A DNA stretch of 7,015 bases from Candidatus Helarchaeota ASGARD archaeon Hel_GB_B (GCA_005191425.1 SUPR01000140.1:1-7015), one strand, 5' to 3'. Positions 5,669 through 6,952 are shown, numbered from the stretch's first letter. Numbers and translations: made by a program. Notes: generated from the sequence alone by a model not told the origin.

Positions 5669-5750
5669 TCATAAATGCATATATTTTATTTACTAAGATT
5701 TAAAGAATTAATATATTAATCTATTATTATAAAGTTAAAATTTATCAATG

Positions 5751-5758
5751 TTTATATA
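5751..5758 (+). promoter_or_regulatory. Candidate TATA box for a near-leaderless JAMM transcript
   Basis: TTTATATA at -35 to -28 from the ATG at 5786, with no RBS before that ATG. This fits a transcription start a few nt upstream of the start codon. Confidence 0.45.
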
Positions 5759-5785
5759 TTAAAAAATTTTATTTGATATATAACG

Positions 5786-6520
5786 ATGGCACCAAAAGTA
5801 AAAATATATCCTCTTGCAGTTGCAAAAATTATTTACCATAGTGCTTCAAATCCAAATAAGGAAATTGCGGGATTTTTAATTGGATATTTTTATAAGGATA
5901 CTGTTATAATTACAGATACAAGAACAGGGAAACAGTATGGTACTTCAGTTCATGTAGTTATTGATGATATTGAATTAGCAAAAATCGCAGAAGAATTAGA
6001 TAATCTAAATATTAATGAAAAAATTGTTGGTTGGTATCACTCACATCCAAATATGGGAGCTCATTTTTTTTCTAGTATAGATATAAGTACTCAAAAACGT
6101 TATCAGATGTTTTCTCCTAATGCAGTTGGTATTGTCGTAGATCCTGCACAATTTATTAGAACTAAAAATCCAAACCATATAGATTTAAAATGTTGGCAAG
6201 TATATAATGATCATGCTATTAATATTGATTATGAAATAATTACGGATTCAGAAGCTTGTTTAAAAAATCTTTTACAACATTTACAAATAATTCCTGATAT
6301 AAATAGTAATATTTCATACATTATAGAAAAATTATTACCTCAATTTAATAGTGATGCTATTTTAAAAAAAGTCGAATTTACCAGACAAGAAATTTCAAAA
6401 CCAATTTTATCTGAAGATATTTATTATCTTAATAAAAATATATTAAAATTATTAATCCAATTAATAATATTAGTTTCTTTTTTAGTAATGTTAGTATTGT
6501 ATGTAAATATCCTTATTTAA
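5786..6520 (+). CDS. JAMM/MPN+ zinc metalloisopeptidase (Rpn11/CSN5-like) with a predicted C-terminal transmembrane helix
   Basis: E26 (KEIAGFLIG), GWYHSHP (H85, H87), S96 and D99, followed by STQ and AVGIVVDP as in Rpn11/CSN5. Residues 222-244 are uncharged and hydrophobic and end the protein. Confidence 0.88.
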   Translation: MAPKVKIYPLAVAKIIYHSASNPNKEIAGFLIGYFYKDTVIITDTRTGKQYGTSVHVVIDDIELAKIAEELDNLNINEKIVGWYHSHPNMGAHFFSSIDISTQKRYQMFSPNAVGIVVDPAQFIRTKNPNHIDLKCWQVYNDHAINIDYEIITDSEACLKNLLQHLQIIPDINSNISYIIEKLLPQFNSDAILKKVEFTRQEISKPILSEDIYYLNKNILKLLIQLIILVSFLVMLVLYVNILI

Positions 6521-6547
6521 AATTAAAAGCAAGTAAATCCTTAAACA

Positions 6548-6952
6548 TCATTCAGATTCAGATAATTTTACACTAATTTTTGCACTTAATGTTATTTTTT
6601 TCAAAATATTGGTAATATCGCTTGTATTTTTTAGATTTCCAATTACATTAACTTTACTAAATGTTTTATCAACGTCTTCAAAAAATATCAAAATCTCATC
6701 GCCTAATGGTTGATAAGCAATGTCTCCTTTTTTAACACTCATTGTTGGTTTTTCTACTCCTGTATTTATATTAGCTTTAAAAGCTAAACGATTGCCTTCA
6801 AGTACTATACCACGTTCATTGATTATTGGTAAATTATCAATAAACTTCTTAACAATAGAGGGACTATAGACCATCCTTAATATTCCTTTTACTATATTTT
6901 TTTCTCCGCCCTTCTCAACTATTATATCTATTTCATATTCACTTTTAGGAAT
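6548..6952 (-). CDS. Cyclophilin-like-fold protein (TM1367/DUF3830-like); start probably upstream of the tracked ATG at 6874
   Basis: Motif GVEKP...KGDIAYQPLGDEILIFF...VNVIG is typical of this family. The reading frame stays open 27 codons upstream of ATG 6874 (stop at 6958-6956), and GGTGAT lies 7 nt before an in-frame ATT at 6952. The product call is more secure than the start position. Confidence 0.65.
   Translation of the reverse strand: MPKSEYEIDIIVEKGGEKNIVKGILRMVYSPSIVKKFIDNLPIINERGIVLEGNRLAFKANINTGVEKPTMSVKKGDIAYQPLGDEILIFFEDVDKTFSKVNVIGNLKNTSDITNILKKITLSAKISVKLSESE

Follow-up and report, generated by a model that had tools for sequence, protein, structure and literature searches.

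No known prokaryotes are closer to eukaryotes than Asgard archaea, in whose genomes ubiquitin and ESCRT genes lie side by side. To our knowledge, all JAMM deubiquitinases studied so far are soluble or recruited by partners, so that a membrane anchor built into the protein would add a new mode of localization to this enzyme class. The window analyzed here, i.e., the whole 7015-bp stretch of contig C48 (25% G+C) from a 3.54-Mb Asgard bin whose close relatives are named Helarchaeota, raises the question of whether such an anchored enzyme exists and whether ubiquitin is its substrate. One gene of the window (Table 1) codes for a JAMM protein with a hydrophobic C-terminus, which an earlier reading made from the DNA alone (the sequence-only reading) took to be a tail-anchored, deubiquitinase-like enzyme of a kind not previously characterized. 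Nothing in the literature searched contradicts that last statement: full-text searches returned no description of a tail- or membrane-anchored JAMM protein of Asgard or other archaea, and in papers dealing with the Caldiarchaeum system or with the ubiquitin-ESCRT clusters of Asgard archaea, deubiquitinases figure only as a domain class and an anchor is not mentioned.

Table 1. Coordinates of the JAMM gene and of its parts, counted from the first letter of the window.
Feature	Position	Strand	Basis
Whole gene, tail-anchored MPN+/JAMM protein P0001, 244 aa	5786..6520	+	ORF list, translation, nine close orthologues
Stop codon	6518-6520	+	Translation
MPN/JAMM catalytic domain, aa 4-152	5795..6241	+	Pfam JAB, AF2, PDB matches
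Catalytic Glu26	5861..5863	+	Invariant in 11- and 43-sequence alignments; touches ubiquitin tail in complex model
JAMM zinc motif H85-S-H87-x8-S96-x2-D99	6038..6082	+	Four residues invariant in both alignments
Helical stalk, aa 153-221, between MPN core and anchor	6242..6448	+	AF2 secondary structure, conserved motifs
C-terminal transmembrane tail anchor (predicted), aa 222-244	6449..6517	+	Hydropathy, AF2 helix, conservation
Upstream intergenic region	5669..5785	+	Read from sequence

The catalytic domain and its closest relatives

The reading frame of the gene is intact, and its product matched only JAB-type MPN models in Pfam, with neither an MIT nor any other extra domain. JAB (PF01398) covers residues 4-112 (E=4e-21, 75.4 bits for a cut-off of 22.5), Prok-JAB follows as a weaker match, and UPF0172, the EMC8/9 family, gives a weak one (E=1.7e-6). 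In an AF2 model computed with the family alignment as input (mean pLDDT 89), residues 1-152 form the MPN core, pLDDT stands at 94-98 over residues 1-160, and the top 50 Foldseek matches are all MPN proteins. In this model, the N-terminus is part of the MPN fold (its first strand and its first helix), in agreement with the earlier view that a signal peptide is absent.

The catalytic residues are likewise intact, E26, H85, H87, S96, and D99 being invariant both among close orthologues (11 aligned sequences) and across the wider family (43 aligned sequences). The complete MPN+ catalytic set of the sequence-only reading is therefore present, with one correction: the His-to-Ser spacer is 8 residues long (H-x-H-x8-S-x2-D), the canonical JAMM motif being E...H-x-H-x7-S-x2-D. 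The 8-residue spacer is common to many short-type members of the family. It is unusual nonetheless and, together with the UPF0172 match, would suit a catalytically dead MPN scaffold such as Rpn8, CSN6, or EMC8/9; this alternative is extremely improbable given the invariance of the Glu, both His, the Ser, and the Asp across 43 sequences and a JAB score far above that of UPF0172.

The closest solved and characterized protein is CsRpn11 (Csub_C1473) of Candidatus Caldiarchaeum subterraneum (PDB 6FJU, 6FJV, 6FNN, and 6FNO), which is soluble, 202 aa long, a monomer in solution, and encoded beside a Ub/E2/E1/RING operon (PMC5654768, PMC6043591). In vitro, it strips the nine-residue propeptide of pro-ubiquitin, which was the first activity demonstrated for it, and deconjugates ubiquitin (PMC5654768, PMC6043591); SAMP precursors are not cleaved (PMC6043591). 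A phmmer comparison with the window protein gives E=1.7e-34 for CsRpn11, with 61 of 140 aligned positions identical (~44%), against about 6e-20 for yeast Rpn11 and about 1e-20 to 1e-14 for eukaryotic Rpn11/CSN5 proteins. The family profile separates them further (E=4e-61 for CsRpn11 vs. 1e-34 for human Rpn11), AMSH proteins scoring about 1e-19, and CsRpn11 also ranks first in Foldseek (6FJV/6FJU, E=2e-17). A quick, unrooted maximum-likelihood tree of 71 MPN proteins, which is silent on gain versus loss of the anchor, has a branch (SH-aLRT 86, not starred) that sets apart the Asgard tail-anchored together with the Aigarchaeota CsRpn11-like proteins (47 rows), and it puts eukaryotic Rpn11 and CSN5 in a separate, starred clade (SH-aLRT 97) away from the window protein. 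Other JAB paralogues of the bin group with neither of the two, and JAB relatives with two membrane helices (e.g., P0021-P0037), which occur among the matches, belong to a different branch of the tree from the window protein. At the level of sequence, the protein probably belongs to the CsRpn11 branch of JAMM proteases and lies outside the eukaryotic Rpn11, CSN5, and AMSH groups. The earlier assignment to an Rpn11/CSN5-like JAMM class is thereby upheld, with a proven deubiquitinase as the closest relative of its MPN+ domain.

The window protein and CsRpn11 have in common their JAMM subfamily, their catalytic residues, and a helix after the core, helix 155-166 of the stalk corresponding to H4 of CsRpn11. 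Unlike CsRpn11, the window protein has a longer stalk, a predicted C-terminal membrane helix, and a one-residue insertion in the zinc-motif loop. Eukaryotic Rpn11 and CSN5 are soluble subunits of the proteasome lid and the COP9 signalosome, respectively, with C-terminal helical bundles and an MPN- partner, and enzymes of these types cleave after the Gly-Gly of ubiquitin or NEDD8. The window protein resembles eukaryotic Rpn11/PSMD14 and CSN5 in its MPN+ fold and motif and matches them significantly in sequence, but it falls outside their clade and its C-terminus is a predicted membrane helix; we know of no eukaryotic Rpn11 or CSN5 with a membrane anchor. AMSH, AMSH-LP, and Sst2 offer a functional analogy, that of a JAMM enzyme at the membrane where ubiquitin and ESCRT meet. 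AMSH, which has an Ins-2 zinc site, is recruited to membranes via its MIT domain and ESCRT partners and without a membrane helix; the window protein, in contrast, has no MIT domain, and its similarity to AMSH is far below that to CsRpn11.

The hydrophobic C-terminus and its distribution among Asgard archaea

The protein ends in LLIQLIILVSFLVMLVLYVNILI, a run of 23 residues with zero charged residues and nothing after it, preceded by K217 and K221; its place at the extreme C-terminus and the basic residues before it had been noted in the sequence-only reading. This run is the sole hydrophobic segment of the protein (Kyte-Doolittle 19-residue mean 2.98) and is spanned by an AF2 helix from residue 209 to 243 (pLDDT 95-98); the transmembrane call combines hydropathy with this helix. 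The linker of about 70 residues that had been placed before it is correct in length and is not featureless. AF2 predicts three helices in it, a confident one at residues 155-166 and two of low confidence at 173-186 and 190-203 (pLDDT stays high up to about residue 165 and stands at 51-71 over residues 170-220). Stalk motifs such as CLxNILxHL and IIxxLxPQLE are, moreover, conserved among Helarchaeial orthologues.

The anchor is conserved. In each of the nine close orthologues (241-251 aa, 37-58% identity), the protein terminates in a helix of this kind, the length and reading frame of the gene are consistent across all of them, and more distant members of the family keep the tail too, which settles in favor of the earlier proposal a point on which it had made the anchor depend. 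The uncharged stretch measures 23 residues in the median of 43 family members, with a median of 0 residues beyond it, and the feature is kept at 22-40% identity in lineages of quite different base composition. Since the tail persists in orthologues down to 37% identity and in far remoter members, it is not due to chance or to a frameshift; an artefact of frameshift, which the earlier reading had considered, or of AT-richness is ruled out as its source by this conservation across orthologues and distant lineages.

Could the hydrophobic C-terminus nevertheless be something other than an anchor? The C-terminal helices of eukaryotic Rpn11, CSN5, and BRCC36 serve assembly, and a buried protein-contact helix of that kind would be one answer; a product of base composition or of a frameshift would be another, in view of a 25% G+C contig that favors Ile, Leu, and Phe codons and of public data that leave positions 6229-6487 uncovered (four public runs, none of them listed as RNA, hold parts of the stretch as fragmentary contigs, none of which spans this interval, and one of which matches 6499-6700 exactly). 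Both answers are very unlikely, for 23 uncharged residues of such hydropathy stand at the very end of the protein, the feature outlasts changes in base composition, lengths and frames agree in all orthologues, and related branches have membrane forms of their own, either two helices in a hairpin or one membrane helix with a long outer region after it.

These other forms became apparent in a search of 1.84 billion cluster representatives, the best 150 of which were sorted by architecture. Strict tail-anchored proteins account for 36 of them, in 29 a long outer region comes after the membrane helix, 2 end in a two-helix hairpin, 74 are without a membrane helix (including eukaryotic Rpn11, CSN5, and fragments), and 9 show other arrangements. 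The named tail-anchored members are Hel-, Baldr-, Odin- (including the closed genome of Odinarchaeum yellowstonii), Hod-, Heimdall-, and Jordarchaeial. When run on 301 Asgard genomes, the family profile gave bimodal scores: about 15 of the 30 families, amounting to some 90 genomes, have matches at E<=1e-53, and in the others the best matches lie around 1e-30 to 1e-45. The architecture was confirmed at sixteen fetched loci: all four with strong matches (families f7, f16, and f27) are tail-anchored, and all twelve with weaker matches (f3, which is a sister order in the same class, f24, f30, f15, and f18) are soluble JABs with no anchor. A pan-Asgard distribution was accordingly rejected, as the best matches in these last five families are soluble proteins, and the anchored form is widespread but not universal in the Asgard phylum.

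Family by family, E2 genes (PF00179) and profile-matching JABs either co-occur or are both missing in the 301 genomes, the largest family without both being f9 (0 of 76 for each), in a comparison that is coarse, as the threshold of E<=1e-20 admits soluble paralogues and related genomes are not independent. As E2 is present and the anchored form absent in f3, f24, f30, f15, and f18, the ubiquitin system does not need the anchor.

Ubiquitin genes, gene context, and candidate substrates

The ubiquitin, E1, E2, RING, and ESCRT genes that the sequence-only reading had proposed to look for were all found in the same bin. Contig C128 carries them as a continuous cluster of two ESCRT-III genes, ESCRT-II (EAP30), a UEV-type gene, a 76-aa RING protein, ubiquitin, E2, and an E1 with a C-terminal ubiquitin-like domain. 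The ubiquitin is 82 aa long and ends in ...TEGG-SPKN, i.e., with a 4-residue propeptide after Gly-Gly, and a protease is therefore needed to expose the Gly-Gly, as in Caldiarchaeum. No JAB gene is found on C128, and the tail-anchored JAMM protein is the nearest relative of CsRpn11 within the bin. The bin holds several further JAB proteins, and one candidate that competes for the role in ubiquitin processing is a soluble 147-aa JAB whose gene adjoins an E2 gene on contig C17. Also present are six ThiF/E1-type genes, further weak ubiquitin-fold matches, and, as candidate insertion factors, three or four Get3/ArsA-type genes and one EMC3/YidC-like gene.

The window and C128 probably come from different populations. 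A syntenic block occurs twice in the bin, on C48 and on C180 plus C172 (56-75% protein identity), and the bin has an estimated contamination of 4.9%; the window contig probably derives from a second, co-binned Helarchaeales population, other than that of C128. The copy of the JAMM gene on C172 (53% identity) was considered as a paralogue and rejected as such, because the entire syntenic block of the window recurs on C180 plus C172. The C172 copy is tail-anchored as well, so the conclusion does not depend on which of the contigs belongs with C128.

The immediate surroundings of the gene are those of a shared ancestry. In the window, it starts 117 nt after a GFO/IDH/MocA oxidoreductase gene and converges with a cyclophilin-like gene. 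All Helarchaeial loci examined (five neighborhoods) have the oxidoreductase-JAB order, with an MmeI-type methylase gene between the two in some of them; convergence with the cyclophilin-like gene is usual there, and a larger block with a LysW cluster, a transcarbamylase, and an Arf-like GTPase is syntenic too. None of these features is seen at the Odin, Baldr, or Hod loci or at a long-type locus, and a functional meaning of the Helarchaeial neighbors was rejected, since the synteny reflects the common descent of close relatives and ends outside this group. No ubiquitin, E1, or E2 gene lies beside the JAMM gene in 8 distinct Asgard neighborhoods (the window and 7 others), unlike the CsRpn11 gene with its adjoining Ub/E2/E1/RING operon. 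At the Odin and Baldr loci, a conserved pair of proteins (416/388 aa and 254/269 aa) is encoded upstream; it matches no Pfam family and was not found in the bin of the window by tblastn or HMMER with the Odin proteins as queries.

Upstream of the window gene, the string TTTATATA at 5751-5758, about 30 nt 5′ of the ATG, is a possible archaeal TATA box; such strings are common at 25% G+C, and it is for this reason no evidence of a promoter. The upstream region, which begins past the preceding gene, only suggests that the JAMM gene has a start of its own.

The fit between enzyme and substrate was modeled in three runs and with 3 controls, from residues 1-172 (the MPN domain, supplied with the family alignment) and the 82-aa pro-ubiquitin of the bin. 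The modeled pair scored 0.84, vs. 0.02 for the best of the 3 controls; for reference, 58 of 80 solved complexes and 2 of 110 mismatched pairs attain that mark. At least 95% of the contacts agree among the three runs, the partner has a pLDDT of 90, and residues 70-81 of ubiquitin are placed against E26, H85, H87, S96, and D99, i.e., with the ubiquitin tail in the active site. A CsRpn11-CsUb complex has already been solved (6FNN), so that the score, while indicating likeness, may possibly reflect memory of that structure.

Taken with the relationship to CsRpn11, these observations make it somewhat probable, on balance, that the JAMM protein is a cytoplasm-facing, tail-anchored ubiquitin protease of the CsRpn11 family; its insertion, topology, substrate, and link to ESCRT are what we infer. 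After its synthesis in the cytoplasm, the protein would enter the cell membrane post-translationally with its single C-terminal helix, for which the Get3/ArsA-type and YidC/EMC3-type factors of the bin are plausible agents. The zinc-containing MPN domain would thus be held at the cytoplasmic face on a helical stalk of about 70 residues, where it would cleave after the Gly-Gly of Asgard ubiquitin. On the one hand, this cleavage could free pro-ubiquitin of its short propeptide; on the other hand, it could take ubiquitin off modified proteins, or it could do both; in either case, the membrane, as the site of action of the ubiquitin-linked ESCRT machinery, would be the only place of ubiquitin maturation or recycling. 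The sequence-only reading had proposed the editing of modifiers on membrane proteins; by analogy with CsRpn11, maturation of pro-ubiquitin appears equally likely. Counted against a ubiquitin protease are the distance of the gene from ubiquitin, E1, and E2 genes in the 8 neighborhoods, unlike CsRpn11, the 8-residue spacer, the soluble JAB of C17 and the other JABs, the probable mismatch between the populations of C48 and C128, the risk of memory in the complex model, and the E2-bearing families without the anchored form.

Part of this evidence would fit an active, membrane-anchored JAMM protease with a substrate other than ubiquitin, be it a SAMP/Urm1-type modifier, a UFM1-like one, or a peptide bond outside of ubiquitin-like proteins. 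The gene is unlinked to ubiquitin, E1, and E2 in all loci examined, its Odin and Baldr counterparts lie beside two conserved proteins without a known family and not beside ubiquitin genes, and the bin has ThiF/E1-type genes and further ubiquitin-fold matches. Such a substrate is rather unlikely, as, of the solved JAMMs, the ubiquitin-specific CsRpn11 is by far the closest to the protein, CsRpn11 did not cleave SAMP precursors (PMC6043591), and the complex model favored ubiquitin, with the above proviso about memory. Less probable again is that the protein is a housekeeping maturase of pro-ubiquitin and nothing more, with an anchor that sets its location or stability and has no link to membrane substrates or ESCRT. 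The propeptide on the ubiquitin of the bin, the missing JAB gene in the C128 cluster, and pro-ubiquitin cleavage as the first demonstrated activity of CsRpn11 would all accord with so narrow a role, but CsRpn11 also deconjugates, and retention of the anchor across about 15 sampled Asgard families implies selection for a membrane location.

The proposed membrane location and the wider CsRpn11 family

With the anchored form present in about half of the sampled Asgard families, the membrane is probably where part of the archaeal ubiquitin system operates, as far as can be judged from sequence. A conserved, Rpn11-like protease fixed to the membrane on its cytoplasmic side would be a concrete, clonable candidate for the "eraser" of the Asgard ubiquitin system. 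It would put the processing of ubiquitin at the membrane before endosomes arose, and it offers a simple way to ask whether membrane sorting dependent on ubiquitin is older than eukaryotes.

A broader reading, unlikely as it stands, is that the whole CsRpn11 family, which among archaeal proteins is nearest to eukaryotic Rpn11 and CSN5, was ancestrally a membrane-associated deubiquitinase, with a tail anchor in many Asgard archaea and a basic amphipathic helix in Aigarchaeota. If this were true, ubiquitin removal would have begun at the membrane beside ESCRT, in an AMSH- or Doa4-like role, and recruitment into the soluble proteasome lid and the signalosome would have come later. The idea of an amphipathic tail rests on the Aigarchaeota relatives of CsRpn11, as the alignments with CsRpn11 itself end at residue 182; in its crystal, residues 174-202, the region of the amphipathic motif, are not resolved (PMC6043591).

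The Aigarchaeota relatives have no membrane helix. Their C-termini consist of a disordered stretch, after which nearly all of them end in a short basic amphipathic motif, e.g., IVKFFSKTKKLL or SVFRKLKKLL, with hydrophobic moments of 0.59-0.88 and a net charge of +1 to +5. This motif occupies the place of the Asgard anchor and could be a peripheral membrane-binding helix, which would extend membrane association to the entire family, or, equally, a partner-binding motif.

Duplicated block and cyclophilin-like gene

The syntenic block that includes the tail-anchored JAMM gene (LysX/AA-kinase/M20/transcarbamylase/137-aa/.../JAB/cyclophilin-like) is present in two copies in the Helarchaeales bin, G000 (see table). 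Protein identity between the two copies is 56–75%, reaching 84% for the LysX fragment (44 aa), and the G+C content of C48 is 25.4%. The reading of the duplicated C48 and C180/C172 blocks as a paralogous region was rejected in favor of two co-binned related populations, C48 being probably a contig from a second, related Helarchaeales population that was binned with the main genome. A tail-anchored JAMM protein of the Helarchaeota type (244 aa) is also encoded on contig DATKTP010000241.1 (locus L040). This contig bears the label of a bacterial MAG (Candidatus Deferrimicrobium sp.) and was probably mis-binned.

Downstream of the JAMM gene, the cyclophilin-like ORF can be extended upstream in frame by IPKSEYEIDIIVEKGGEKNIVKGILR, which matches the N-termini of 131–144-aa orthologues in the alignment. 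Because this extension is devoid of any usable ATG, GTG, or TTG codon, the start codon of the gene is probably ATT (6952–6950).

Coordinates of the features described in the bin and in related loci
Feature	Location	Strand	Content
Block copy 1	C48, whole window
Block copy 2	C180:8844-12391 and C172:44-1091
Cyclophilin-like ORF as called	window 6548-6874	-	108 aa
In-frame extension of this ORF	window 6875-6952	-
Ubiquitin-ESCRT supercluster	C128:49322-66133
Second small module	C17:60-1905		soluble 147-aa MPN+ JAB, 129-aa protein, 169-aa E2
Upstream protein pair, Odinarchaeum	L120:4968-6985		416 and 254 aa
Upstream protein pair, Baldrarchaeota	L121:3575-5566		388 and 269 aa
Inserted MmeI-type gene	L009:5237-7912; L015:5164-7905

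Ubiquitin modules and gene neighborhoods

The supercluster of G000 groups two ESCRT-III genes with genes for EAP30, UEV, a 76-aa RING protein, ubiquitin, E2, and E1; its ubiquitin has 82 aa, including a 4-residue propeptide (TEGG-SPKN), and no JAB gene lies within its limits. In the second module, the divergent 129-aa protein is encoded on the opposite strand and is related to a 136-aa protein found two genes downstream of the tail-anchored JAMM gene of Odinarchaeum.

Upstream of the latter gene and of its Baldrarchaeota counterpart are found two proteins, 29–31% identical between the two classes and belonging to no Pfam family, which are adjoined by an AdoMet synthase gene. This pair was not found in G000 using the Odinarchaeum proteins as queries. 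The oxidoreductase and JAB genes of some Helarchaeial relatives are separated by the insertion of a restriction-modification gene of the MmeI type (about 890–915 aa), which is absent from the window.

C-terminal architectures of the JAMM family

Within f3, an Asgard family from the sister order of the same class, the best JAB match (loci L124–L127) is a soluble protein of 265–274 aa. It contains the motif HSHPSYGCFMS(R/K/S)ED, and its acidic C-terminus is conserved (...GKPAYLEYDE or ...GKALFLEYDEE); the tail-anchored form was not seen in this family. In soluble CsRpn11-like proteins, mostly from Aigarchaeota/Nitrososphaerota together with one from Sifarchaeum (Asgard), the C-terminus is formed by a basic, amphipathic motif that is conserved, such as IVKFFSKTKKLL, SVFRKLKKLL, or LSKFLRKIKDR (L042, L045, L046, L048, L049, L051, L054–L056, L059, L063–L065, and L067). 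This motif, which occupies the position of the transmembrane anchor of many Asgard relatives, may act as a helix that binds the membrane peripherally or may serve to bind a partner.

Several long-type members of 280–300 aa (P0074, P0077, P0083, P0084, and P0103) carry a Glu mid-way in the tail anchor (e.g., GVALEVGIFW, GGVFIEILVFF), and the presence of a charge within the membrane-embedded helix suggests an intramembrane partner. Unlike the tail-anchored form, a related branch has a receptor-like layout, in which the JAB domain is followed by a membrane helix near residue 170–210 and then by an outer region of 200–550 aa (P0087, P0088, P0091, P0095, and P0102, and loci L068, L070, and L077, these three loci being from Thermoplasmata and Bathyarchaeia).
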